From assembly GCF_058153355.1 (NCBI RefSeq), contig NZ_CM177019.1: a stretch of DNA of 64,000 bases; one strand, written 5' to 3'. Below, one piece after another: positions 37,966 to 51,492 of this stretch. The translations under genes and the position numbers were made by a program. The notes beneath the pieces were generated by a model, which saw nothing but the letters and a program-made list of their open reading frames with translations, made no database searches and was not told the origin of the DNA. Within the stretch, counting starts at the first letter, position 1. Each line of letters begins with the position of its first letter.

Positions 37966-38180
37966 GCCGAGTCCTTTGTGCGAGGAAAAATATCAGTATG
38001 GCCTGGTGATGGGAAAAAGGGCAGAAAATGTTGATGGTTTGTTACTTCCCAATAAATCACATATTTATCATGGTGATATAAATATTTTCCTAATTGTTCT
38101 TATCTGACAGATATCTCACTTAAGGCTTTCTTATAAATCTGTAGGGTTTGCACCATGAGTGCGGTAGCTATGAGGTTTAT

Positions 38181-40493
38181 ATGTCCTCAGAAGGATTACG
38201 TTTCACGCTGTCGGTGGCCGGTATCGTGGAGATGGCGACGGCGGTGGTGAGCTTCCGTCTGTACCAGCACCACTGCACGCCGTTCATCCTGGATGTGGAT
38301 ATCGCCAGCGGGCTGCCCGACCTGACGGCGGAGGATTTTCTGGAGAAGAGCGCGGTGCTGACGGTCTGGCAGGGTGATATCCCGCAGCGTTACGTCAGCG
38401 GTATCGTGACGGAGGTGCAGCTCGGTGAGAACAACGACTGGCAGATGCGTTATTCCCTGAGCATCAGCCCGCCGCTGTGGCGGGCAGGGTTACGGCAGAA
38501 CTTCCGTATCTTCCAGCAGCAGGACATTCAGACGATATCAGCACAGCTTCTGAGAGAGAACGGGGTGACGGCGTGGATGCCGCTGTTCTATGAGGCGCAC
38601 CCGGCGCGGGAGTTCTGCGTGCAGTACGGGGAGAGCGACCTGGCATTCCTGACCCGGCTGTGGGCGGAGGAAGGTATCTTCTTTTATGAGCGCTGCGGTC
38701 AGGAAGGGCCGGAGCAGAAGCTGGCGGTGTGTGATGACGTGGCGGGGCTGACGGGAATGGGGGCGCTGGCGTTTAACCCGAATACCACGACCGGGGGAAC
38801 GACGGAGTACATCAGTGAGTTTCGTTACCGTGCGCAGATAAGCGTGGCGTCGGTGGAGACGCAGGATTATACGTTCAAAACGCCGGGGTGGCCGGGGTAC
38901 TACAGCCATGACGGGGAGAGCCTGAACGGGCAGGGAACGCAGTACGAGATATTTGATTATCCGGGGCGTTTCAAGGATGAGCAGCATGGCCAGGATTTTG
39001 CGCGTTACCAGACGGAAGGGTGGCGGAACGGGGCGGAGACGGCGAGCGGGGTGTGTAACACGGCGCGGCTGTGGCCGGGAACGCGGTTCCGGCTGACGGG
39101 CCATCCCTCAGAGACGCTGAACCGGGAATGGCAGGTTGTGGGAAGCACACTGCGGGGAGAACAGCCGCAGGCGCTGCACGGGAGTCACGGTGAAGGGACG
39201 ACACTGAGCAATCAGTTTGAGGTGATACCGGCAGACAGGACGTGGCGTCACGCGCCGCTGCCGAAGCCGAAGGTGGACGGCCCGCAGAGTGCCATCGTGA
39301 CCGGGCCGAAGGGTGAGGAGATATTCTGCGACGAGCATGGCCGGGTACGGGTGAAGTTTCACTGGGACCGTTATCACGGGATGACGGAGGAGAGTTCGTG
39401 CTGGATACGGGTGTCGCAGGCATGGGCGGGACCGGGGTTCGGCAATCTGGCGATACCGCGTGTGGGTCAGGAAGTGATAGTGGACTTTCTGAACGGCGAC
39501 CCGGACCAGCCCATTGTGACGGGGCGGACCTACCATGAAGATAACCGTTCACCGGGGGATTTACCGGGCACGCGGACGCAGATGACCATCCGCTCGAAGA
39601 CCTATAAAGGAAGCGGCTTTAATGAACTGCGTTTCGAGGATGCGACGGACAGTGAGCAGGTGTATATCCACGCGCAGAAGAACATGGACACGGAGGTGCT
39701 TAACGACCGGACGACGGACGTGAAGCATGACCATACGGAGACCATCGGTAACGACCAGAAGATAAGGGTGGTGAAGGGGCAGACGGTTGAGGTCGGCACC
39801 AGAAAAGAAGGGGGTCACGACCAGAGTATCACGGTGGCGAACGACCGGCGCATAACGGTACGTAATGACCAGACGCTGAAGGTGACGAATGACCGGACGG
39901 TGAGCGTGAGTCACGATGACGGCCTGTATGTCAGAAACGACCGTAAAGTGACGGTGGAAGGGAAGCAGGAGCATAAGACGACGGGGAACCATATCAGCCT
40001 GGTGGAGGGAAAGCACAGTCTGGAGGTGAAGGGCGACCTGGCGGAGAAGGTGAGTGGCGCGCTGGGGATCAAGGTGGACGGGGATATCGTGCTGGAGAGC
40101 AGCAGCCGGATAAGCCTGAAAGTGGGCGGCTCGTTCGTGGTGATACACTCTGGCGGTGTGGATATTGCGGGGCCGAAGATAAACCTCAACGGGGGAGGCA
40201 GTCCGGGGACGCCAGTACAGACGTTACAACCGGTGGTACTGGAGGCGCTGGAGGATGAGAATGATGATGAGAACCCTGAAAAATATACTCTCCAGTTCCA
40301 TTTTACAGACGATGACGGGATACCGTATTCAGAGACACGCTACATTGCCTTCTTTGAGGACGGCACGCAGACGCGAGGGGAGACGGATGAAAATGGGTAT
40401 ACGGAAACATTCTCCACTGACAGCGAGCAGACAATCGAAGTCAGATTGTTGCATTTGAATATCGATATGATATGGGGAGGGATTAATGAATAG
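38181..40493 (+). CDS. vgrG: Type VI secretion spike protein VgrG (copy 1) with ~80-aa C-terminal extension (possible transthyretin-like adaptor domain)
   Basis: 770 aa from MSSEGLRFTLSVAGIVE…; gp27-like N-domain, gp5-like OB/beta-helix region with repeated VxVxV-type strands (…ITVANDRRITVRNDQTLKVTNDRTVSVSHDD…), then …VVIHSGGVDIAGPKINLNGGGSPG and an extension …YTLQFHFTDDDGIPYSETRYIAFFEDGTQTRGETDENGYTETF…. No YD repeats, so not Rhs. Confidence 0.9.
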   Translation: MSSEGLRFTLSVAGIVEMATAVVSFRLYQHHCTPFILDVDIASGLPDLTAEDFLEKSAVLTVWQGDIPQRYVSGIVTEVQLGENNDWQMRYSLSISPPLWRAGLRQNFRIFQQQDIQTISAQLLRENGVTAWMPLFYEAHPAREFCVQYGESDLAFLTRLWAEEGIFFYERCGQEGPEQKLAVCDDVAGLTGMGALAFNPNTTTGGTTEYISEFRYRAQISVASVETQDYTFKTPGWPGYYSHDGESLNGQGTQYEIFDYPGRFKDEQHGQDFARYQTEGWRNGAETASGVCNTARLWPGTRFRLTGHPSETLNREWQVVGSTLRGEQPQALHGSHGEGTTLSNQFEVIPADRTWRHAPLPKPKVDGPQSAIVTGPKGEEIFCDEHGRVRVKFHWDRYHGMTEESSCWIRVSQAWAGPGFGNLAIPRVGQEVIVDFLNGDPDQPIVTGRTYHEDNRSPGDLPGTRTQMTIRSKTYKGSGFNELRFEDATDSEQVYIHAQKNMDTEVLNDRTTDVKHDHTETIGNDQKIRVVKGQTVEVGTRKEGGHDQSITVANDRRITVRNDQTLKVTNDRTVSVSHDDGLYVRNDRKVTVEGKQEHKTTGNHISLVEGKHSLEVKGDLAEKVSGALGIKVDGDIVLESSSRISLKVGGSFVVIHSGGVDIAGPKINLNGGGSPGTPVQTLQPVVLEALEDENDDENPEKYTLQFHFTDDDGIPYSETRYIAFFEDGTQTRGETDENGYTETFSTDSEQTIEVRLLHLNIDMIWGGINE
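39163..40040. repeat. Near-identical ~0.9-kb vgrG 3'-core repeat, copy 1 of 3
   Basis: Sequence and six-frame antisense ORFs are identical to 43497-44374 and 49075-49900 (e.g. ORF 39602-39799 = 43935-44132 = 49459-49656). Confidence 0.85.
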
Positions 40494-40576
40494 AGAGTGA
40501 CCGCCTGTAATTGGCGTGTTTTTGCATAAATGGAACAGGGTTTTGTAGTGAAAACATATTGCTAAGGAGGATTTAT

Positions 40577-41422
40577 ATGGGAGATGGAAAGGGTAGTACG
40601 AGCGGAAAAAGCCAGAGCGGTGAACAGTGTGTAGTTTTAAAGGAGGGAAAAATTACTAATGATTTTAAAATAATGATGAGAGAGGCTCTGAAGGCGCTGA
40701 TGGCTGTATTGAAGAAAAGAGTAGAAGATCTTGGTGATAAATGGGGAGAGGAACAAAATCAGGAGTTTATAAATATATTTGGTATTGATGGAAATACTTA
40801 TATTAAATTAGAGTTCCCTTTCGGGGGGCGTAAGGTTATGTTTCCAGAGAATATAAAGGCAAGGGATTATATGAGAAATGGCGTTACTCGCCTGTATGAG
40901 ATATGTGGGGAATTATCTGTGGAAGGTGATTGTGTAGACGTTACTATTCATGACCATTTCCTCAAACGTGATGCCAATTGTAATCTTGTTCTTAATGACA
41001 AAGGGGGTAATGAATATGTTGACAAAGACGTAATCAGGCCCAAAACCGGTAACTTTGTGAATTGTACAGATAATGACGCTTATGCTGCCAATGTAACTTA
41101 CGATCAGATTTTGGGTGTAAAACCTGGAGGCTTTAAAAGTTTGGTAAGTATAACTATAGGACAAAGATTTATAGATAGGCCACCCACTGGGAAAAACTCT
41201 AAGGCATCGACACTCTGCCATGAACTATCTCACTTTATAAGGTACGGGGATTCATTTAAGTTTGGAGGCATGTGGACGGAAGATATGCCGGTAGATATAG
41301 AGTATAATACAGGTGACGAATATATTGTTCATGCCACTAAATTAAAAAATGATAAAAAATCAGAACTATTTCAGAATGCATATAATATCGAACGTTATTT
41401 CGAGATTCATGTACCATATTGA
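40577..41422 (+). CDS. Putative T6SS effector, HExxH zincin-like metallopeptidase candidate
   Basis: 281 aa from ATG 40577 (RBS aaggagg upstream); AT-rich; HELSH motif at 41219-41233 followed by …GGMWTEDMPVDIEYNTGDEY…; no signal peptide; directly downstream of vgrG-1. Confidence 0.55.
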   Translation: MGDGKGSTSGKSQSGEQCVVLKEGKITNDFKIMMREALKALMAVLKKRVEDLGDKWGEEQNQEFINIFGIDGNTYIKLEFPFGGRKVMFPENIKARDYMRNGVTRLYEICGELSVEGDCVDVTIHDHFLKRDANCNLVLNDKGGNEYVDKDVIRPKTGNFVNCTDNDAYAANVTYDQILGVKPGGFKSLVSITIGQRFIDRPPTGKNSKASTLCHELSHFIRYGDSFKFGGMWTEDMPVDIEYNTGDEYIVHATKLKNDKKSELFQNAYNIERYFEIHVPY

Positions 41423-41446
41423 TGCTTTTATTTGACGGGGGAGTAT

Positions 41447-42355
41447 ATGCTTGCTAGATGGATTGTTTTTATTGTTTTTTTTGCGCATCCAATATTTGCT
41501 TATGATATCTCTGGCGATTATGCTGTTCATTACAGATATGGGAAGTTATATTGGAATGGAGTAATGGACAAACTTGGTGTCTATCCTCGTGTAGAGCCGA
41601 CAAGGCTTAATTATTATGATTATTATGATGATCTTTCAGCCTATGCTGTTTTTCAATATTATACTATCAGTAAAAATGAGAGTCAGTATAATCAAGATAA
41701 AAATAAAATATATCTTCATCTTTCCGTGCATCAGAAAGAAAATATTGTAGCAGCTGCAGTGGTTTTATCGAATAAAAGCCAGGGATCTTATTTTGTTCAT
41801 CGACTAACTCTTCCTCTTGACGTTAACGGCGGGCCTTACTCTTCCTTGTGTAGTGGTGTGTTTATACCGATAATGGATAACATTCAGTTGGATTTTTTAA
41901 AAAAAACAAAATGTAGCTTTGGTGAATGGAAAAATAAATCCGTTTGGCACGAGATATTAACAGGGAAAGAGCTATCCTTTGATGTCATATTGAACGATTA
42001 TTATGCCTTTTTACCGGGCATTCATCGTTATAATATAGGAACGGTAGAATTTACAATAGTTAATCAAGAGTGGTTTACAGAACAATGTATATATGAGTAT
42101 TTTCTTTCTATTATGAACTGGCGGGCAGAAAGTGAGTGTACTAATCCTATAGATAAAATAAGATATGGTATAGAGGAGTGGCGGGTTTGGAGAATTTGTG
42201 GACCTTATCGTGGGTCAGGTCTATTTCAGGATTTTTTAGCACGCTTTGGCTATCATGGCGGTAATGATAATATATTCAAAATAAGATCAAATCAGGTTGT
42301 GGTTACTATTGATGGGGATAGGGCATCTCCTCCTTATTCGTTGAGGAATTATTAA
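41447..42355 (+). CDS. Putative cognate immunity protein (secreted/periplasmic) for the HExxH effector
   Basis: ~303 aa with N-terminal signal peptide MLARWIVFIVFFAHPIFA; AT-rich; starts 24 bp after the effector stop; no recognisable family. Confidence 0.45.
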   Translation: MLARWIVFIVFFAHPIFAYDISGDYAVHYRYGKLYWNGVMDKLGVYPRVEPTRLNYYDYYDDLSAYAVFQYYTISKNESQYNQDKNKIYLHLSVHQKENIVAAAVVLSNKSQGSYFVHRLTLPLDVNGGPYSSLCSGVFIPIMDNIQLDFLKKTKCSFGEWKNKSVWHEILTGKELSFDVILNDYYAFLPGIHRYNIGTVEFTIVNQEWFTEQCIYEYFLSIMNWRAESECTNPIDKIRYGIEEWRVWRICGPYRGSGLFQDFLARFGYHGGNDNIFKIRSNQVVVTIDGDRASPPYSLRNY

Positions 42356-42510: not shown

Positions 42511-44712
42511 ATGTCATTAAAAGGGCTGCGCTTTACGCTGACGGTGGACGGACTGGTGCCGGAGACGTTTGCGGTGGTGGATTTCCGCCTCACGCAGGCA
42601 TACTCATCGCCGTTCGTCCTGGATGTGGACGTTGCCAGCGACTCGTTCCGCCAGACGGCGGAGAAGCTGCTGGAGAAGGGGGCCGTACTGACCATCTGGC
42701 AGGGTGGCACGGCGCTGCGTTATGTGAGCGGTGTGGTGTCGGGGTTCGGCATGAAGGAGCACAACGGCTGGCAGATGCAGTACCACCTTCAGATACGTCC
42801 GCCCCTGTGGCGCAGCGGGCTGCGCCAGAACTACCGAATCTTCCAGCAGCAGGACATTCAGGCCATCTCCGCCACGCTGTTAAACGAGGACGGAGTGACG
42901 CAGTGGACGCCGCGCTTTTATGAGAGCCACCCGGCACGGGAGTTCTGCGTCCAGTACGGTGAAAGCGACATGGCGTTTCTGACCCGGCTGTGGGCGGGGG
43001 AAGGCATCTTCTTTTATGACAGATACGCTGACGACAGCCCGGAGCAGACGCTCACGCTGTGCGATGATGTGGCGGGCCTGCCGGTGTACGGGGAGATACC
43101 GTTTAACCCGAACACCCGTGAGGTGACGACGGCGTGCATCAGCCTGTTCCGCTACCAGGCGCAGGTGCGGCCCTCGCAGGTGCGTTCAAAAGACCACACG
43201 TTTAAGGTGCCGGACTGGCCGGGTATTTACATTGAGGATGCTGAAAACCTCAACGGGCAACTGAAGCAGTACAAAATCCTGGACTGGCCGGGGCGCTACA
43301 AGGACGAGCAGCATGGTCAGGACTTTACCCGCTACCGGCTGGAAGGGCTGCGTAACAGTGCTGAAACCGCCACAGGTATCAGTAACTCCCCGGCGCTGTG
43401 GCCGGGACGGCGGTTCACCTTGACGGGGCATCCGGTACAGGGAGCGAACCCGAACCGTGAGTGGCAGGTGGTGAGCAGCACGCTGACGGGGAGCCAGCCG
43501 CAGGCGCTGCACGGGAGTCACGGTGAAGGGACGACACTGAGCAATCAGTTTGAGGTGATACCGGCAGACAGGACGTGGCGTCACGCGCCGCTGCCGAAGC
43601 CGAAGGTGGACGGCCCGCAGAGTGCCATCGTGACCGGGCCGAAGGGTGAGGAGATATTCTGCGACGAGCATGGCCGGGTACGGGTGAAGTTTCACTGGGA
43701 CCGTTATCACGGGATGACGGAGGAGAGTTCGTGCTGGATACGGGTGTCGCAGGCATGGGCGGGACCGGGGTTCGGCAATCTGGCGATACCGCGTGTGGGT
43801 CAGGAAGTGATAGTGGACTTTCTGAACGGCGACCCGGACCAGCCCATTGTGACGGGGCGGACCTACCATGAAGATAACCGTTCACCGGGGGATTTACCGG
43901 GCACGCGGACGCAGATGACCATCCGCTCGAAGACCTATAAAGGAAGCGGCTTTAATGAACTGCGTTTCGAGGATGCGACGGACAGTGAGCAGGTGTATAT
44001 CCACGCGCAGAAGAACATGGACACGGAGGTGCTTAACGACCGGACGACGGACGTGAAGCATGACCATACGGAGACCATCGGTAACGACCAGAAGATAAGG
44101 GTGGTGAAGGGGCAGACGGTTGAGGTCGGCACCAGAAAAGAAGGGGGTCACGACCAGAGTATCACGGTGGCGAACGACCGGCGCATAACGGTACGTAATG
44201 ACCAGACGCTGAAGGTGACGAATGACCGGACGGTGAGCGTGAGTCACGATGACGGCCTGTATGTCAGAAACGACCGTAAAGTGACGGTGGAAGGGAAGCA
44301 GGAGCATAAGACGACGGGGAACCATATCAGCCTGGTGGAGGGAAAGCACAGTCTGGAGGTGAAGGGCGACCTGGCGAGGAAGATTACCGGTGCGCTGGGA
44401 ATGAAGGTCCGGAATGAAATCGTACTGGAGAGTGGCGGTAAAATCACCCTAAAGGTGGGTGGTTCGTTTGTGGTCATCCATTCAGGGGGCGTGGACATCG
44501 TCGGGCCGAAAATCAATCTCAATAGCGGCGGTAGTCCGGGAACGCCGGTGCCGACGCTACGACCGGCGGTTTTGAAAGCGCTGGCAGATTATGACAATGG
44601 CGGACCTGGAACTGAAGGGGCGGAGCCACCACGGAAAAGTGTACAGGAAGCCTTTGATCCTCCCCAGCAGGATAAGGTACCGCCACAACGGCCGGGAAGA
44701 TTCTCACGATAA
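42511..44712 (+). CDS. vgrG: Type VI secretion spike protein VgrG (copy 2)
   Basis: 733 aa from MSLKGLRFTLTVDGLVPETFAVVDF…; same architecture as copy 1; short Pro/Gln-rich C-terminal tail. Confidence 0.9.
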   Translation: MSLKGLRFTLTVDGLVPETFAVVDFRLTQAYSSPFVLDVDVASDSFRQTAEKLLEKGAVLTIWQGGTALRYVSGVVSGFGMKEHNGWQMQYHLQIRPPLWRSGLRQNYRIFQQQDIQAISATLLNEDGVTQWTPRFYESHPAREFCVQYGESDMAFLTRLWAGEGIFFYDRYADDSPEQTLTLCDDVAGLPVYGEIPFNPNTREVTTACISLFRYQAQVRPSQVRSKDHTFKVPDWPGIYIEDAENLNGQLKQYKILDWPGRYKDEQHGQDFTRYRLEGLRNSAETATGISNSPALWPGRRFTLTGHPVQGANPNREWQVVSSTLTGSQPQALHGSHGEGTTLSNQFEVIPADRTWRHAPLPKPKVDGPQSAIVTGPKGEEIFCDEHGRVRVKFHWDRYHGMTEESSCWIRVSQAWAGPGFGNLAIPRVGQEVIVDFLNGDPDQPIVTGRTYHEDNRSPGDLPGTRTQMTIRSKTYKGSGFNELRFEDATDSEQVYIHAQKNMDTEVLNDRTTDVKHDHTETIGNDQKIRVVKGQTVEVGTRKEGGHDQSITVANDRRITVRNDQTLKVTNDRTVSVSHDDGLYVRNDRKVTVEGKQEHKTTGNHISLVEGKHSLEVKGDLARKITGALGMKVRNEIVLESGGKITLKVGGSFVVIHSGGVDIVGPKINLNSGGSPGTPVPTLRPAVLKALADYDNGGPGTEGAEPPRKSVQEAFDPPQQDKVPPQRPGRFSR
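43497..44374. repeat. Near-identical ~0.9-kb vgrG 3'-core repeat, copy 2 of 3
   Basis: See copy 1. Confidence 0.85.
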
Positions 44713-44721
44713 GGACTGAAC

Positions 44722-47211
44722 ATGAAAATCAGCCATCCCATCAGGGATAAAGAAGGCAAAGAGTTTCGCTCACTGGATGAGATAATGCGGCTTATTGACA
44801 AAGAAGCGCACGGAACCTGGCTGCTGGGTGGAAACGGGCTGTGGCACGGCGGGATACATATCAGTGACGTGTCTAATCCGTTATCAGCCCTGAAACCGGA
44901 TACCGCCGCTACCGGAGAACCGGTTCCTCTTCAGTTTATGGCCGATGGCACCATTGCGGCGTACCGGATAAATAATGATTACCTGAAAGGCCCCTACAAA
45001 GGGCAGCAACTCCGTTACAGCAGCACATTTGTTCTGGTGAAATCGCAGTGCCAGCCAGACCCGCAAAAAAAAGAAAGCTGGCTGGAATTTTACTGTCTCT
45101 ATATGCATCTGGCCCCGGTGAACGATTATCCCGGCTCCCCCTGCTATAAAGTTAAAACCGGGCATGGTGGCATATTGCTGCACCGATACATCCCGGGAAA
45201 GAACGGCCTTCCCGAGGGGCAGGAAAGCGGAGATCATGCCACGTACTGGATACCCCCGAAAATCAGCGGAAACAGGACACTTAATGCGGGAGATCGGTTT
45301 GTGTCATCCCGGACCGGACGTTTTTACGTGACCAATAACGGCCAGCCGGTCCTGACGACATTCGGACTGGTTCGCCTGCTGGAAGGCAATAAACCGGGGA
45401 ATGAGCAGTACTGGGTGACCCTGGATCCGGATCTGATGGAGTCAGATGGCGAAATACAGATGCTGATGCCTGAGTGGATGCAGAAGGCGAAGGCAAAAGG
45501 CATTTTTGACTCGGTACAGACGGTCGACGAAACGGAAGAGTGGAAAGTCAGTGCCGGAACACCGGTCGGATTTATGGGATGCGAGGATTATCCTGGCGAG
45601 GGAAGCGGTGAGATTGAGCGCGAGTGGTTCGTCCATCTGGAGGTTCTGAGTACAGACCCGAATATGCCAAAGTTCTTATCCAACCCGGCAGGCGTTAAGG
45701 GAGAAAAACGGACTGTTCTGGCACCAAAAGGGATAATTTTATACACCCGGCAGGCCGTTCCGGGACAGGAGGTATTTACCGCAACCGCAGCCACGCTGGG
45801 TGCTCAGCGCGTTCTTCCGCGGGAAGCCACGACACCAGTCACGGATGAATCGCAGCAGTGGTGGTTTAATATCACCGGAACCGGCTGGCTGCCACAAAAG
45901 GATGTTGAAGAGGCCGGACAGTATGATTTACTGAAGCTGGGTTTTCAACCGCTGGAGGAGAACAGCAGCGGTGACATGACGTACAGCCCGTACGAAGGAT
46001 GGGTGCCGGAAGCGTTTGACTCAATAAGCCGTGCCGCAGAACAGGGAGATGAGTGGCTGTATGAGCAGGTACCGCCCTTTTATCGTGAGCTGATGGCGGG
46101 TATGGATCAGGACGGTGATGGAAAAGTGACGGAGGAAGAGATCAGACAGGCGCTGATCGTGCGTGAACCACTGGTGAGAAATGTGGTGAATCATCTGATA
46201 GTTAAACACCACAGCGAATGGTACGGAGGGCGCTCGACAGGGCGGTGGGAAGGATTTTATAAAGATCTGGATACAGAGGAAGTGGCATACTGTGAGAAGT
46301 GGCAGCTGGATCTGGAGTGGATGAGCGGGGTATCTCCGTTTAATAGTGATGATGCTGTGTGGCATTTTCATCCGGTTGTGTTTTTGGACGCTATTAATTC
46401 CAAATCTGTGTGTGCTTGCAACAGAGATATAACATTAGATGAATTAAAAAAAGTTGCTCCTGCAGTAAGTGAAGGTCTTCTCAAAAGGTACCTCTACGAT
46501 ATAAATGCAGGGTTTATTCGGTTTGGTATGACCACTTGTAGAGAAAAAGCCCATTTTCTTGCTCAAATTATTCACGAGAGCGGTTATTTTAGATATACCA
46601 AAGAAATTAATGGTGAATCAGCTTCATATAGTCCGTGGTATGGCCGAGGCTTAATACAAGTTACAGGCGAAAGTAATTACACCGCCTATGGGGAATATAT
46701 CAATGAGGACGTAACATCTTCAGATTCCGCAAGAGATAAACTCATATCCTCCCCACATTGCGTATTATCTGCGTTTTGGTATTTCAATATATTCAAAAGA
46801 ATAAATGAAGATGCTAAAAATGATGATTTTAATAAAATTACAGTAGTGATTAATGGAGGGTATAATCATTATGATGAACGGTTGTCGATATTTAATAAAT
46901 TGGTTACCTCACTTGCTGCCGAGCATTTAAATCAGAAAGAAATGAACGACGATTTCTTGTTTGATGATAGTGACGTATATGATAATAAAGTATATGCTTT
47001 GGGATGGGGGATATGGCATGATCCTGATAGCTCCCGAAGAGGGACGATCAAGAGTAACGAAGAAGCATTAAAAGGTTATAGAAGGGCGAAAGAATTAATT
47101 GACCTGCATCCGTTTCCTCAGGAAGGGCGTGAGGGTGATAGAAAAGTATATGGAATAGAAAAAAGGAATATATCCACATTTGTAGAGAGACGAATAACTG
47201 AACTGGAGTAA
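44722..47211 (+). CDS. Large T6SS effector: possible M23/LytM-like N-region, EF-hand calcium-binding motif, C-terminal GH19/lysozyme-like peptidoglycan hydrolase domain
   Basis: 829 aa; EF-hand loop DQDGDGKVTEEE (~46102); C-terminal …REKAHFLAQIIHESGYFRYTKEINGESASYSPWYGRGLIQVTGESNYTAYG… (from ~46537) matches the GH19 / 'predicted chitinase' catalytic signature; N-region WHGGIHISDV…ADGTIAAY…YMHL resembles a divergent M23 peptidase (tentative). Confidence 0.7.
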   Translation: MKISHPIRDKEGKEFRSLDEIMRLIDKEAHGTWLLGGNGLWHGGIHISDVSNPLSALKPDTAATGEPVPLQFMADGTIAAYRINNDYLKGPYKGQQLRYSSTFVLVKSQCQPDPQKKESWLEFYCLYMHLAPVNDYPGSPCYKVKTGHGGILLHRYIPGKNGLPEGQESGDHATYWIPPKISGNRTLNAGDRFVSSRTGRFYVTNNGQPVLTTFGLVRLLEGNKPGNEQYWVTLDPDLMESDGEIQMLMPEWMQKAKAKGIFDSVQTVDETEEWKVSAGTPVGFMGCEDYPGEGSGEIEREWFVHLEVLSTDPNMPKFLSNPAGVKGEKRTVLAPKGIILYTRQAVPGQEVFTATAATLGAQRVLPREATTPVTDESQQWWFNITGTGWLPQKDVEEAGQYDLLKLGFQPLEENSSGDMTYSPYEGWVPEAFDSISRAAEQGDEWLYEQVPPFYRELMAGMDQDGDGKVTEEEIRQALIVREPLVRNVVNHLIVKHHSEWYGGRSTGRWEGFYKDLDTEEVAYCEKWQLDLEWMSGVSPFNSDDAVWHFHPVVFLDAINSKSVCACNRDITLDELKKVAPAVSEGLLKRYLYDINAGFIRFGMTTCREKAHFLAQIIHESGYFRYTKEINGESASYSPWYGRGLIQVTGESNYTAYGEYINEDVTSSDSARDKLISSPHCVLSAFWYFNIFKRINEDAKNDDFNKITVVINGGYNHYDERLSIFNKLVTSLAAEHLNQKEMNDDFLFDDSDVYDNKVYALGWGIWHDPDSSRRGTIKSNEEALKGYRRAKELIDLHPFPQEGREGDRKVYGIEKRNISTFVERRITELE

Positions 47212-47216
47212 TTGAT

Positions 47217-47627
47217 ATGAAAGTTAATTTATTGGTTTTACTGTTTTGTTTGGTGCCTTGTTGTTTATTGGCTAAACAACAAACAACGGTAGGCTGTTTT
47301 AGCGCTGGGAAAACAAATTTAAAGTTTGTTGAAATATCGTCTGGCGATATTTTTTTAGGTTATGTGATTTATGAGAAATCCTCAAAATTTATACCTCTTG
47401 CGTTTATAAATAAATTAGAAGTGACTTTCGATGACAGGCCTTCTGAATTTTCTTATGCATGGAGCGAGGTTGTAAATGGAAAAATTAATGGGTTGTATGT
47501 TGTTTCCACACAAGGTGCAAGATTTAATTTGTTTCATTATAAATCAATAAGTGGGAAAACAACTGAGTTTGAAGAAAATATTGAGGCATATAATGATGAT
47601 GGTACTGATTGCAAATGGACTGGATGA
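47217..47627 (+). CDS. Putative periplasmic immunity protein for the lysozyme-like effector
   Basis: 136 aa with N-terminal signal sequence MKVNLLVLLFCLVPCCLLA; begins 5 bp after the effector stop; AT-rich. Confidence 0.45.
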   Translation: MKVNLLVLLFCLVPCCLLAKQQTTVGCFSAGKTNLKFVEISSGDIFLGYVIYEKSSKFIPLAFINKLEVTFDDRPSEFSYAWSEVVNGKINGLYVVSTQGARFNLFHYKSISGKTTEFEENIEAYNDDGTDCKWTG

Positions 47628-47775: not shown

Positions 47776-49070
47776 ACAGGCAGGCAGGGAAAGATCACGT
47801 AACGCTGCTTTTTTGTACTATACAATTCGCATTTTATGTTTGAAAATTGAGATATTCCTCATTACCTGAAGCTGTTTTTTATTGCTTATACATGATCAAA
47901 TACTCCTTACATAATTAAGGAGAACAAAATGGTACTTAAAAAATTGATGGAACATATTTCTATTATCCCCGATTACAGACAAGCCTGGAAAGTGGAACAT
48001 AAATTATCGGATATTCTACTGTTGACTATTTGCGCCGTTATTTCGGGTGCAGAAGGCTGGGAAGATATAGAGGATTTTGGGGAAACACATCTCGATTTTT
48101 TGAAGCAATATGGTGATTTTGAAAATGGTATTCCTGTTCACGATACCATTGTCAGAGTTGTATCCTGTATCAGTCCTGCAAAATTTCACGAGTGCTTTAT
48201 TAACTGGATGCGTGACTGCCATTCTTCAGATGATAAAGGCGTCATTGCAATTGATGGAAAAACGCTCCGGCACTCTTATGACAAGAGTCGCCGCAGGGGA
48301 GCGATTCATGTCATTAGTGCGTTCTCAACAATGCACAGTCTGGTCATCGGACAGATCAAGACGGATGAGAAATCCAATGAGATTACAGCTATCCCAGAAC
48401 TTCTTAACATGCTGGATATTAAAGGAAAAATCATCACAACTGATGCGATGGGTTGCCAGAAAGATATTGCAGAGAAGATACAAAAACAGGGAGGTGATTA
48501 TTTATTCGCGGTAAAAGGAAACCAGGGGCGGCTAAATAAAGCCTTTGAGGAAAAATTTCCGCTGAAAGAATTAAATAATCCAGATCATGACAGTTAAGCG
48601 ATTAGTGAAAAGAGTCACGGCAGAGAAAAAATCCGTCTTCATATTGTTTGCGATGTCCCTGATGAACTTATTGATTTCACGTTTGAATGGAAAGGTCTGA
48701 AGAAATTATGCGTGGCAGTCTCCTTTCGGTTAATAATAGCAGAACAAAAGAAAGAGCCAGAAATGACGGTCAGATATTATATCAGTTCTGCTGATTTAAC
48801 CGCAGAGAAGTTCGCCACAGCAATCCGAAACCACTGGCACGTGGAGAATAAGCTGCACTGGCGTCTGGACGTGGTAATGAATGAAGACGACTGCAAAATA
48901 AGAAGAGGAAACGCCGCAGAATTATTTTCAGGGATACGGCACATCGCTATTAATATTTTAACGAATGATAAGGTATTCAAGGCAGGGTTAAGACGTAAGA
49001 TGCGAAAAGCAGCCATGGACAGAAACTATCTCGCGTCAGTCCTTGCGGGGAGCGGGCTTTCGTAATCTTG
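47776..49070 (+). mobile_element. ISAs1-family (H-repeat / ISEc1-like) element inserted into vgrG copy 3
   Basis: ~1.3 kb; contains the H-repeat transposase gene; left-end sequence (gtacaggcagggaaagatcac…) recurs at 51856 and ~53976; right end abuts vgrG sequence beginning mid-gene (…FEVIPADRTW…). Confidence 0.7.
47929..49065 (+). pseudogene. ISAs1-family transposase (H-repeat protein, YhhI-like) with an in-frame TAA at 48595-48597
   Basis: ORFs 47929-48597 and 48712-49065 are in the same frame and both match the H-repeat protein ([58 protein letters not shown]… and …[41 protein letters not shown]…); full span would encode 378 aa. Confidence 0.8.
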
Positions 49071-49074
49071 CCCT

Positions 49075-49900
49075 GGAGGTGATACCGGCGGACAGGACGT
49101 GGCGTCACGCGCCCCTGCCGAAGCCGAAGGTGGACGGCCCGCAGAGTGCCATCGTGACCGGGCCGAAGGGCGAGGAGATATTCTGCGACGAGCATGGCCG
49201 GGTACGGGTGAAGTTTCACTGGGACCGTTATCACGGGATGACGGAGGAGAGTTCATGCTGGATACGGGCGTCGCAGGCATGGGCGGGACCGGGGTTCGGC
49301 AATCTGGCGATACCGCGTGTGGGTCAGGAAGTGATAGTGGACTTTCTGAACGGCGACCCGGACCAGCCCATTGTGACGGGGCGGACATACCATGAGGACA
49401 ACCGTTCACCGGGGGATTTACCGGGCACGCGGACGCAGATGACCATCCGCTCGAAGACCTATAAAGGAAGCGGCTTTAATGAACTGCGTTTCGAGGATGC
49501 GACGGACAGTGAGCAGGTGTATATCCACGCGCAGAAGAACATGGACACGGAGGTGCTTAACGACCGGACGACGGACGTGAAGCATGACCATACGGAGACC
49601 ATCGGTAACGACCAGAAGATAAGGGTGGTGAAGGGGCAGACGGTTGAGGTCGGCACCAGAAAAGAAGGGGGTCACGACCAGAGTATCACGGTGGCGAACG
49701 ACCGGCGCATAACGGTACGTAATGACCAGACGCTGAAGGTGACGAATGACCGGACGGTGAGCGTGAGTCACGATGACGGCCTGTATGTCAGAAACGACCG
49801 TAAAGTGACGGTGGAAGGGAAGCAGGAGCATAAGACGACGGGGAACCATATCAGTCTGGTGGAGGGAACGCACAGTCTGGAGGTGAAGGGCGACCTGGCG
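49075..49900. repeat. Near-identical vgrG 3'-core repeat, copy 3 of 3
   Basis: See copy 1. Confidence 0.8.
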
Positions 49901-51492
49901 AGGAAGATTACCGGTGCGCTGGGAATGAAGGTCCGGGATGAAATCGTACTGGAGAGTGGTGGTAAAATCACCCTGAAGTGGGTGGCTCGTTTGTGGTCGT
50001 TCATTCTGGTGGTGTGGATATTGTCGGACCGAAAATAAATCTGAATTGCGGGCGCAGTCCGGGGACGCCGATAAATACACTACAACCGGCAGTTATGGAC
50101 GCTCTGGCTGACGAGCAGTATGACAGAGGGAATGCTGGCGGCGGGAATGACGGAGAGCCTAGTGATGAGGATGAATCAGAAGGTGGAGAAGAAGACAAGG
50201 ACGATTCAGATGAACTGGTAATTCCTGTATACGCAAAATCTTGTCTGAAGGAGAAAGGCTGCACTGATGCTGGTACGACCATGGAGCCATCGAAACATTT
50301 TGGTGATATGGCTCTATTTGCCCAGCCAGTGGAGGATGACTGTTGCGGCTATGGTACACACTATCATGACGATGAAGTGGAGCAACTTGCGCAGTCAGCA
50401 AAAAAAACCTCAGGAGCGAACTCACTGACGGGGGAAATGACAGTTGCGTCAGCGGGTGTTGCGGTTCCACTAGCGGCGGAACAGTCTGCGGGAGTTTTAA
50501 CTCGCGTATGGGGAACATTAGGGGCATGGGGTGGAGAAGGTTTTTTAAGTGTATCAAAAACGGTGCCAGCCCTTGGTGTCCTAGTATCAGCACTATATCC
50601 AATACCTGCCGGTGAAGGTAGTGATAAAGTTCCTGGACGGGATGAACAGTGGCTCGAAAATGAGCTACGTCGTAAAGCGCAATCTGGAGAGACGGCAGCT
50701 ACGCGGGCGCGCTTTCTCTTTCAGCGGAATACTGCTGGTGAATTGAGGACATACGGATACCACACACCCGCAGGTTCGGAACTTGAAGGTGTTCGGGTAG
50801 CATTGATGGAGTGGAATAAGGAATTTTCCCGTTATGAATTTTCACCTGTGTCTGATTCGGGACCAAAAATATTTTGGACGCCTGCAAAGCCAGAAGGTTC
50901 AGAGCAGCCCATACACACCGGAACTCCTGTCGAACCAGTTGATCTACCTGATATTTATGTTAATCCGATACCCGATGAAAAAACAGATATCACCACGCCG
51001 CCTTCTCCAATGCCGGAGGAGCGAAATTTTAATGACTGGATACTTGTCTTTCCTGACGGTGCGGAATTAACACCAATATATGTGTATCTGAAAACTGCAA
51101 GGGATGTAGCGGGAACAGTAACAGGTAAGGGGGAGGTGTTAGCAGGTACAGGAAGATGGCTGTCGCAGGCGGGGAAAAGCTTAGGAGTGCCAATTCCACA
51201 ACAGGTCGCAAATAAACTTCGGAGTAAGTCATTTAACAATTTTGATGAATTCATGGCAGCTTTCTGGACTGCTGTAGGTGAATGTCCAGAACTATTGAGC
51301 CAATTTAATAAAGCTAACCAAACGTTGATAAAGCGTGGACGCGCACCTTATACTATATCAAGACAAAGAGTTGGGGGGCGAGGTACATTTGAAATTCATC
51401 ATATTGACGAAATCCAATATGGGGGAGAAGTCTATGATATTGATAATCTTAGAGTAAACACACCTAAAAACCACATACGATTGCATAAATAA
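49075..51492 (+). pseudogene. vgrG: vgrG copy 3, 'evolved' VgrG with C-terminal colicin E9/pyocin-type HNH DNase domain; 5'-truncated by ISAs1 and carrying a -1 frameshift near 49976
   Basis: Starts mid-gene at the ISAs1 right end; vgrG frame runs to ~49976 where ctgaagtgggtgg has lost one G relative to copies 1/2 (ctgaaggtgggtgg); downstream frame continues through a linker to …GVPIPQQVANKLRSKSFNNFDEFMAAFWTAVGECPELLSQ…RQRVGGRGTFEIHHIDEIQYGGEVYDIDNLRVNTPKNHIRLHK (~51169-51489), which aligns closely with the colicin E9 DNase domain. Confidence 0.8.

Follow-up and report, generated by a model that had tools for sequence, protein, structure and literature searches.

To our knowledge, only a small number of T6SS peptidase effectors are understood; VgrG2b is the best-studied of them. 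VgrG2b of P. aeruginosa, a zinc HExxH peptidase delivered by the T6SS, shows toxicity in the periplasm alone, and its immunity protein PA0261, described as a small ORF, carries a signal peptide and cysteines and is DsbA-dependent (Wood et al. 2019, PMC6899460). Free-standing relatives of VgrG2b are known from E. coli PAR ('M35^PAR'; PMC10673891) and as SARI_02727 (PMC12992299). The 'M35' label given to VgrG2b in PMC10673891 is at odds with its gluzincin classification. Cargo loading has been described for EAEC VgrG1, which loads Tle1 via a C-terminal transthyretin-like (TTR) domain whose boundaries and binding mode are reported (PMC10715212; PDB 6SJL). The Aspzincin/MEROPS M35 family (PF14521, PF02102) has as named members the Grifola frondosa peptidyl-Lys metalloendopeptidase (GfMEP; 1G12), AsaP1 (2X3A) and deuterolysin (1EB6). 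A bioinformatic T6SS survey (Geller et al. 2024, PMC11148199) lists Aspzincin_M35 domains in fusions with VgrG, PAAR, Hcp and Rhs proteins, as clusters 122 and 172 of a supplement. In the literature searched, no experimental work on T6SS aspzincin toxins or on the cassette described here was found.

The window, which is the whole stretch of 64,000 nucleotides, very likely holds an auxiliary T6SS module of three matched parts: a VgrG ending in a TTR domain, an aspzincin cargo effector with the periplasm as its site of action, and an exported immunity protein. All three are encoded on the plus strand. The preliminary description had begun this locus at 40248; the three-part locus is indeed present, but that coordinate falls within the VgrG tail. 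The peptidase and partner genes are both low in GC (0.374 and 0.349, respectively, whereas the vgrG genes are at 0.60 and selAB-yibF at 0.555) and have strong ribosome-binding sites. As their homologues keep the motifs, and the gene order is repeated in eight other modules, these ORFs are not a product of chance. The examined parts of the window (about 34-64 kb) yielded no T6SS core genes, and a working apparatus in this strain is therefore an assumption. The combination of VgrG-TTR, cargo and periplasmic immunity is a well-established logic, and the fold of the effector is already labelled in databases, which makes the discovery an incremental one.

The vgrG-1 ORF spans 38148-40493. The ATG at 38181 was chosen following the RefSeq annotation of relatives, and it agrees with the RefSeq tssI start in E. 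coli N96 and MFDS1022581. The resulting T6SS spike protein of 770 aa (38181..40493) matched TIGR03361 (E 7e-177) and the Pfam families Phage_GPD, Phage_base_V and Gp5_trimer_C. The tail noticed earlier beyond ...GPKINLNGGGSPG does exist, although it measures 94 aa rather than about 80 aa (40209..40490), and it consists of an acidic linker followed by a TTR-like module of about 70 aa (40278-40490), the presumed cargo docking site. Pfam gave no match for this 94-aa extension, but its profile matched the TTR domain of EAEC VgrG1 (6SJL residues 781-827, E 6.3e-5) and the TTR segment of VgrG2b (6H56, E 0.019), which supports the transthyretin-like nature that had been proposed for it. As in the EAEC VgrG1-Tle1 system, the TTR-like domain stands on a flexible linker and the cargo gene lies directly downstream; the EAEC cargo is a phospholipase, whereas the cargo here is a predicted peptidase.

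The 281-aa AT-rich ORF was located directly 3' of vgrG-1, as had been described, at 40577-41422, behind a Shine-Dalgarno sequence AAGGAGG (40564..40570) recognised by inspection. Its product has the aspzincin (M35) fold and is a predicted zinc endopeptidase, a more specific form of the zincin-like metalloprotease suggested before. The profile and structure searches that the preliminary description had recommended returned this fold, with T6SS-fused Aspzincin_M35 domains as the relatives. The HELSH motif lies exactly at the nucleotides given earlier, 41219-41233 (aa 215-219), is invariant in 14/14 family members, and corresponds in alignments to HESSH in GfMEP and to HEMSH in the fused toxins; H215 and H219 are predicted to be two zinc ligands and E216 the catalytic base. 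The predicted third ligand is D236, invariant in the family, within T234-E235-D236 (41276..41284), the counterpart of GTxD in the canonical GTxDxxYG. The C-terminal motif NAYNIERYFE (41375..41404) was matched by hhalign to the canonical aspzincin NADNFEYY, and Y269, N270, E272 (the conserved C-terminal Glu), Y274 and F275 in it are invariant, as is the Thr-x-Asp ligand across the peptidase family. In GfMEP, the corresponding roles are assigned to His117, His121, Asp130 and Thr128, with Asp154 in the second shell (PMC3268031).

The comparison with M35 peptidases also revealed clear differences. The family consensus at GTxDxxYG is G-T-D-D-M-P, so that Tyr-Gly is replaced by Met-Pro, and the protein in the window has Trp for Gly. 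The second-shell Asp (Asp154 of GfMEP) corresponds to Tyr269, and the loop between HExxH and Asp is longer. Given these replacements of Tyr-Gly and of the second-shell Asp, activity and specificity may differ from those of the peptidyl-Lys enzymes. The substrate might, at a guess by analogy with those enzymes, be proteins cut before a basic residue, with a modified pocket. The effector is encoded as T6SS cargo and has neither a signal peptide nor a recognised propeptide; its residues 1-23 are predicted to be disordered. It carries an extra N-terminal helical segment, and the subfamily found in the window also has a beta-hairpin insertion. No family member reached E <= 0.001 against PF14521 or PF02102 (best i-E 0.014, 4/14 members), and the link to the Pfam families runs via Pfam-positive relatives.

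These relatives are distant. They score as significant Aspzincin_M35 domains in Pfam and form the C-termini of VgrG, PAAR, Hcp and Rhs-core proteins, an arrangement by which T6SS polymorphic toxin domains are recognised. Both the domain and the preceding helical segment are homologous (hhalign 99.7%, E 2.7e-25, 173 columns). The fused toxins are covalent, retain the canonical GTxDxxYG and NADNFEYY, and are followed by downstream ORFs of 134-181 aa, whereas the cassette has a free-standing cargo with a VgrG TTR tail dedicated to it, and a partner of 280-315 aa. VgrG2b/PA0261 is the closest working analogy, and the VgrG2b peptidase is also preceded by a TTR domain. VgrG2b is, however, a thermolysin-like gluzincin with Glu983 as third ligand, and the cassette peptidase belongs to another family. 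The effector did not match the VgrG2b peptidase domain (6H56) in sequence or fold searches; the match to 6H56 was limited to its TTR segment and came from the VgrG tail. Assignment of the cassette peptidase to the VgrG2b gluzincin family was rejected for this lack of peptidase-domain similarity, and for Asp rather than Glu as the predicted third ligand.

The partner gene (41447..42355, with an ATG start at 41447) follows a Shine-Dalgarno sequence GGGGGAG (41437..41443), also found by inspection. The signal-peptide ORF expected downstream is thus present, with a product of 302 aa; the 303 given before counts the stop codon. Its N-terminus, MLARWIVFIVFFAHPIFA/YD, is hydrophobic and Sec-like, with predicted cleavage before YD (41447..41500), in agreement with the earlier reading. 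Neither protein had been recognised as a characterised T6SS family. This holds for the partner, which had no Pfam, NCBIfam or PDB match, but not for the peptidase domain, which is already named in databases (UniProt auto-annotation labels relatives M35-like). Eleven partner homologues were found, in which the N-terminus is repeatedly hydrophobic and ends in small residues. Three cysteines are invariant (136, 157 and 252 in the first row of the alignment, residues 135, 156 and 251 of the 302-aa partner). The structure model had a pLDDT of 38.9, and in this low-confidence model the central domain outlined by the partner profile (about aa 88-200, 41708..42046) is beta-rich. At 302 aa, the partner exceeds the 281-aa toxin and is unusually large for an immunity protein.

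Each of the fused Aspzincin_M35 toxins has a downstream ORF whose core resembles the central domain of the partner. On the ORFs directly 3' of a PAAR-M35 and a VgrG-M35 protein, the partner profile scored 19.1 and 13.0 bits, which 0/2000 shuffles reached in either case, and the same region was aligned with a common ...YAFLPGxHRY.... The central domain thus appears weakly but significantly similar to the immunity-position ORFs of the fused aspzincin toxins. One immunity-position ORF, adjacent to a PAAR-M35 toxin, has no signal peptide, which suggests that periplasmic action is not universal among aspzincin T6SS toxins. In Salmonella, an additional divergent partner paralogue was observed, a pattern as in immunity gene arrays.

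The order VgrG tail, peptidase, partner was found in 9/9 modules from E. coli, Salmonella, Enterobacter, Buttiauxella and metagenomes. These modules occupy different places in the chromosome and involve two different VgrG backbones, and the tail module of about 70 aa is kept in all nine VgrGs upstream of this effector family. In every module, the cargo gene lies directly 3' of a vgrG that ends in this cargo-specific TTR-like domain. Three modules adjoin a PAAR gene, and one is located within a core T6SS cluster (DotU-TssL-Hcp-ClpV-VgrG). The divergence of the peptidase correlated with that of the partner (Mantel r 0.66) and of the tail (r 0.69), with 0/5000 permutations in each case, although shared inheritance of linked genes could give the same correlations. 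With its adjacency to the toxin gene in 9/9 modules, its co-inheritance and its predicted location in the compartment of the toxin, the partner is, from this context, most likely an exported immunity protein that protects the producer.

We propose that VgrG-1 would act as cargo carrier through its flexible acidic linker and TTR end domain. H215, H219 and D236 would bind zinc, and E216 would serve as the catalytic base. By analogy with Tle1 on EAEC VgrG1, the peptidase, devoid of an export signal, would most likely ride on the TTR domain, perhaps via its conserved disordered N-terminal 25 residues, with docking by N-terminal strand complementation. The T6SS would then inject the peptidase into neighbouring Gram-negative cells, where envelope or periplasmic proteins would be cleaved; peptidoglycan or lipoproteins, named earlier as examples of a target, are a guess. 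In the producer, Sec would export the partner to the periplasm, disulfides would probably stabilise it, and it would bind and neutralise the incoming toxin, hence its role as immunity protein.

It is unlikely that the peptidase is instead a virulence protease that is directed at hosts or acts extracellularly, as the Aeromonas M35 toxin AsaP1 exemplifies, delivered by the T6SS to eukaryotic cells, with a partner that is not an antibacterial immunity protein. A signal-peptide partner that is strictly linked and co-diverging is a hallmark of antibacterial effector-immunity pairs, and the family is also present in environmental Buttiauxella and metagenomes; a dual activity on bacteria and hosts is possible. 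The size of the partner (302 aa), its conservation close to that of the effector (36% versus 41% mean pairwise identity) and its match to no recognised fold would suit a loading or stabilising accessory (chaperone, adaptor or co-effector), yet such a role seems very unlikely for a protein with a signal-peptide-like N-terminus and invariant cysteines, as T6SS loading is cytoplasmic. The known T6SS adaptor families (DUF4123, DUF1795 and DUF2169) reside in the cytoplasm, and their genes usually precede that of the effector. Furthermore, the core of the partner resembles ORFs that follow fused aspzincin toxins, which require no adaptor.

A non-proteolytic use of the M35-like fold, for instance as an RNA N-glycosidase acting in the cytoplasm, has a precedent in lyophyllin, a mushroom M35-superfamily protein for which RNA N-glycosidase activity is reported (PMC8584072), and would accord with the missing GTxDxxYG tyrosine and the replaced second-shell Asp. 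We regard it as highly improbable, since the family keeps HExxH, the Thr-x-Asp ligand and the C-terminal Glu without exception and the exported partner speaks against a cytoplasmic target. It is hardly credible that the two ORFs are halves of one gene of 594 aa cut by a nonsense mutation, and hence a pseudogene. A single 594-aa CDS in E. coli N96, named 'M35 family metalloendopeptidase', does cover both ORFs, and the stop codon differs by one base (TGA here, TTA in N96). However, the ORFs are separate genes in the two other E. coli genomes and in each of the eight other modules, with 11 to 166 nt between them, and the second ORF starts with its own strong ribosome-binding site and predicted signal peptide. 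The N96 allele is therefore the derived one, explained by loss of the stop codon or an error in sequencing.

The cassette is a compact, genetically tractable E. coli case of a second, unrelated class of T6SS peptidase, the aspzincins, which recurs as fusions to VgrG, PAAR, Hcp and Rhs, and it supplies a presumed matched VgrG docking tail together with an unclassified 300-aa partner. Braun's lipoprotein ties the outer membrane to peptidoglycan through its C-terminal Lys, and the AsaP1 propeptide plugs the active site. A speculative and rather doubtful extension of the proposed module is that a periplasmic T6SS toxin with aspzincin (Lys-N-type) chemistry and an altered S1'/second-shell pocket targets an envelope diamino-acid junction, for instance the C-terminal Lys of Braun's lipoprotein or a stem peptide containing mDAP, and that the conserved beta-rich core of the partner is a general aspzincin-inhibitor fold plugging the active site as that propeptide does. 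If true, it would be the first demonstrated case of a T6SS toxin relying on aspzincin chemistry in the periplasm. The substrate, once worked out, would reveal which envelope protein or link is the lethal target, and the tail-cargo pair could serve the engineering of T6SS cargo delivery. The second spike gene of the same window, vgrG-2, has a Pro-rich tail unrelated to that of vgrG-1 and a different cargo.

The window is E. coli-like, judging by its sequence: the selB-selA-yibF segment showed at most 98.5% identity to E. coli genomes and was found in 5425 of 5426. A vgrG island is located downstream of yibF, a site which we take to be the position occupied by rhsA in K-12. The vgrG-1 gene (38181-40493, + strand) encodes 770 aa, matched TIGR03361 (E 7e-177) as well as Pfam models, and continues for 94 aa past GPKINLNGGGSPG; the preliminary description had recognised this extension and put it at ∼80 aa. 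It is followed by the effector ORF (40577-41422, + strand; 281 aa), with the ribosome-binding site AAGGAGG and an HELSH motif at 41219-41233 (+ strand). The partner ORF (41447-42355, + strand) starts 24 nt past the effector TGA stop, carries the ribosome-binding site GGGGGAG and begins with MLARWIVFIVFFAHPIFA/YD; it encodes 302 aa, one less than the 303 first reported, while the HELSH position and the other coordinates and motifs had been read correctly from the sequence. GC content was 0.37 in the effector and 0.35 in the partner, compared with 0.60 in the flanking vgrG genes. Among 5426 complete E. coli genomes, only three contain the pair. All three have it at the yibF site, with 95.8% identity, and in two of them it is annotated as two hypothetical proteins. 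A promoter and terminator scan of this AT-rich DNA was uninformative, with matches near chance level.

Pfam and NCBIfam searches gave no significant match for the effector. When 5.8 billion proteins were searched by word index, 13 relatives turned up, from Salmonella, Buttiauxella, Enterobacter, Citrobacter and E. coli; their alignment revealed an invariant STLCHELSH, an invariant Asp within G-T-D-D-M-P (D236 in the window protein) and an invariant C-terminal NAYNIERYFE. The AF2 model built from this alignment was confident except for residues 1-23 (pLDDT 82.3, pTM 0.81). A zincin-like metalloprotease had been suggested for this ORF, with a profile and structure search as the check; the Foldseek search of the model against the PDB returned M35 entries only, and the family profile matched 1g12, the peptidyl-Lys metalloendopeptidase of Grifola frondosa (GfMEP), over the HExxH region (E 4e-5). 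In GfMEP, His117, His121 and Asp130 bind the zinc, and the second shell contains Thr128 and Asp154 (PMC3268031). As the effector counterparts of these residues are H215, H219, D236, T234 and Tyr269, respectively, the effector is predicted to be an aspzincin with a modified motif, which lacks the Tyr-Gly of GTxDxxYG and has Tyr in place of the second-shell Asp.

Repeated fusion to T6SS components that are themselves secreted classically marks a T6SS polymorphic toxin domain. The effector family profile, run with HMMER against all 1.84 billion representatives, gave 137 matches, and Pfam Aspzincin_M35 was significant in all 12 distant relatives sampled from them. Among the fused relatives this domain forms the C-terminal end of a VgrG (909 aa), three PAAR proteins and an Hcp, or follows an Rhs core. 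Profile-profile alignment (hhalign) of the effector family with the distant Aspzincin_M35 set gave 99.7% probability and E 2.7e-25 over 173 columns, pairing HELSH with HEMSH, GTDDMP with GTxDxxYG and NAYNIERYFE with NADNFEYYLE, together with a helical segment N-terminal to the catalytic domain. The NADN/NAYN equivalence is drawn from this alignment, as phmmer of the C-terminal 42 aa against the PDB gave no match for the comparison. The fused T6SS domains are the nearest homologues of the effector. In Geller et al. 2024 (PMC11148199) they appear only in a supplementary table. A literature search for aspzincin or M35 T6SS effectors returned that entry and an 'M35' label for VgrG2b-like proteins (PMC10673891), and no experimental study.

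Pseudomonas aeruginosa VgrG2b with its immunity protein PA0261 (Wood et al. 2019, PMC6899460) is the nearest working analogue: an HExxH peptidase that acts in the periplasm, with a transthyretin-like (TTR) domain upstream and an immunity protein dependent on its signal peptide and on DsbA. Unlike the M35-like effector, the VgrG2b peptidase is a thermolysin-like gluzincin, and the 'M35' label in PMC10673891 should not be confused with the effector family. Membership of the effector in the VgrG2b family was rejected, as the VgrG2b peptidase domain remained unmatched in both sequence and fold searches.

The last ∼70 residues of the VgrG-1 tail (...QFHFTDDDGIPY..TRYIAFF.DGTQ..G.TD.NG.TE.F....Q.IEVRLL..NIDM..GG.NE) form a module that was conserved in every VgrG preceding an effector-family member among the modules examined. 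Two of these VgrGs, encoded within a core T6SS cluster, carry DUF2345 and are built on another type of backbone. Pfam did not recognise the tail. Its profile matched residues 781-827 of EAEC VgrG1 (6SJL; E 6.3e-5). A second match (E 0.019) covered ∼60 residues at the start of 6H56, the crystal construct of the VgrG2b C-terminus. Since these are TTR regions, the matches argue, at the level of sequence, for the transthyretin-like adaptor proposed earlier. In EAEC VgrG1, the TTR domain, which begins after residue 778, holds the Tle1 cargo by its N-terminal strand through fold complementation (PMC10715212).

The partner likewise had no match in Pfam, NCBIfam or the PDB, where the only profile hit (7jid, E 0.4) was a chance match; an AF2 model from a 12-sequence alignment failed (pLDDT 38.9). 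Eleven homologues were found. The family displayed three invariant cysteines, the strongly conserved motifs FVHR and IRSNQV.V.IDGD, and N-termini that are hydrophobic, resemble signal peptides and end in small residues, a recurrence consistent with the signal peptide first read from the single ORF. The partner profile was also compared with ORFs chosen beforehand by their position behind fused aspzincin toxins. It scored 19.1 bits against a 134-aa ORF downstream of a PAAR-M35 protein and 13.0 bits against a 173-aa ORF, with a signal peptide, downstream of a VgrG-M35 protein; these similarities are weak in bits, and none of 2000 shuffles of either ORF reached the respective score. Both ORFs align to one central region of the partner and share YAFLPGxHRY. 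Because the profile matches ORFs behind fused toxins, the partner core domain appears to travel with the toxin domain regardless of how the toxin is delivered, as expected of an immunity determinant. The 134-aa ORF (L012 1024-1428), behind a PAAR-Aspzincin_M35 toxin, lacks a signal peptide and has an in-frame stop just before its ATG, so that neutralisation may be cytoplasmic for at least some aspzincin T6SS toxins.

A partner homologue lay directly behind the peptidase at every locus examined, which gives nine concordant modules: Buttiauxella (L003), Enterobacter (L005), E. coli (L006, with two tandem modules), Salmonella (L009), three metagenome contigs (L014, L016 and L017) and the window. 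Pairwise divergences of peptidase, partner and tail were correlated (r 0.66, 0.69 and 0.62; 0, 0 and 2 of 5000 Mantel permutations), which shows co-inheritance as one module. Such correlation alone is no proof that the products interact physically. The reading of effector and partner as one split gene was suggested by E. coli N96 (L001 8375-10159, NZ_CM169999.1), where a single base change turns the effector stop TGA into TTA and RefSeq joins both into a single 'M35 family metalloendopeptidase' of 594 aa. N96 still has the separate ribosome-binding site of the partner, and N96 is the derived allele because all other relatives have two genes; this comparison and the synteny of the relatives led us to reject a split gene. 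The 594-aa CDS may reflect either a sequencing error or an allele in which toxin and immunity protein are naturally fused.

A cargo effector-immunity module is the best-supported reading of the cassette, and the evidence from sequence, fold and synteny both supports and sharpens the interpretation initially offered. The peptidase, which has no signal peptide, would dock on the TTR tail of VgrG-1, with its conserved, disordered N-terminal 25 residues as the docking strand that we infer as a candidate. The T6SS would then carry it into the target-cell periplasm, where the predicted zinc site (H215/H219/D236), with E216 as base, would hydrolyse peptide bonds; this site of action is suggested by the predicted location of the partner. 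In sibling cells, the Sec-exported and probably disulfide-bonded partner would block the peptidase. By analogy with known members of the peptidase family, the expected substrates are proteins cut before a basic residue, and the altered motif leaves room for others. The cassette would represent a new, uncharacterised T6SS cargo peptidase with periplasmic immunity, of known logic, and not a new kind of system. What the effector cleaves and how the ∼300-aa partner is built are the useful questions.

Several of the compared loci presented additional features. In E. coli GCA_053725335.1 (L006 5498-14156), two complete VgrG-tail/peptidase/partner modules stand in tandem within a core T6SS cluster, with DotU, TssL/OmpA, Hcp and ClpV genes upstream. 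The first of the two partner genes has a short call (227 aa); its frame runs further upstream without an obvious ATG. In Salmonella enterica ACBBWK010000109.1 (L009 2532-3434), the cognate partner and a PAAR gene flank a second, divergent partner paralogue (300 aa, 29-30% identity to the cognate partner), which resembles an orphan immunity gene. On a metagenome contig (L016 2423-3686) the module is followed by a 255-aa PG_binding_1 and Peptidase_M23 protein and a 175-aa ORF, likely a neighbouring cell-wall-targeting effector-immunity pair.

In the window, vgrG-2 (42511-44712) shares 84% DNA identity with vgrG-1 (38181-40493) over 2.07 kb. The two proteins have an identical stretch of ∼300 aa and differ in their N-terminal thirds and tails, a pattern suggestive of gene conversion between the tandem spike genes; through recombination, this repeat could allow the M35 cassette to be lost or exchanged. 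Unlike vgrG-1, vgrG-2 ends in a Pro-rich tail of 56 aa and has its own cargo, an 829-aa protein followed by a 136-aa ORF (44722-47627), probably a second cargo effector-immunity pair. The 829-aa protein, whose gene falls in GC toward the 3' end, is annotated as 'chitinase' in E. coli N96 and 'hypothetical' in MFDS1022581, and had no NCBIfam match. An ISAs1 transposase remnant (47929-48597) lies upstream of a truncated third vgrG (49043-50038), which covers only TIGR03361 positions 337-513. The overlapping 504-aa ORF (49978-51492) matched the C-terminal part of NF047924, a VPA1263-type T6SS DNase effector, with E 5e-65, below the model cutoff. This region is probably a vgrG-DNase fusion that a frameshift or an IS element has disrupted, and E. 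coli MFDS1022581 carries a different annotation over the stretch corresponding to 47929-51492.
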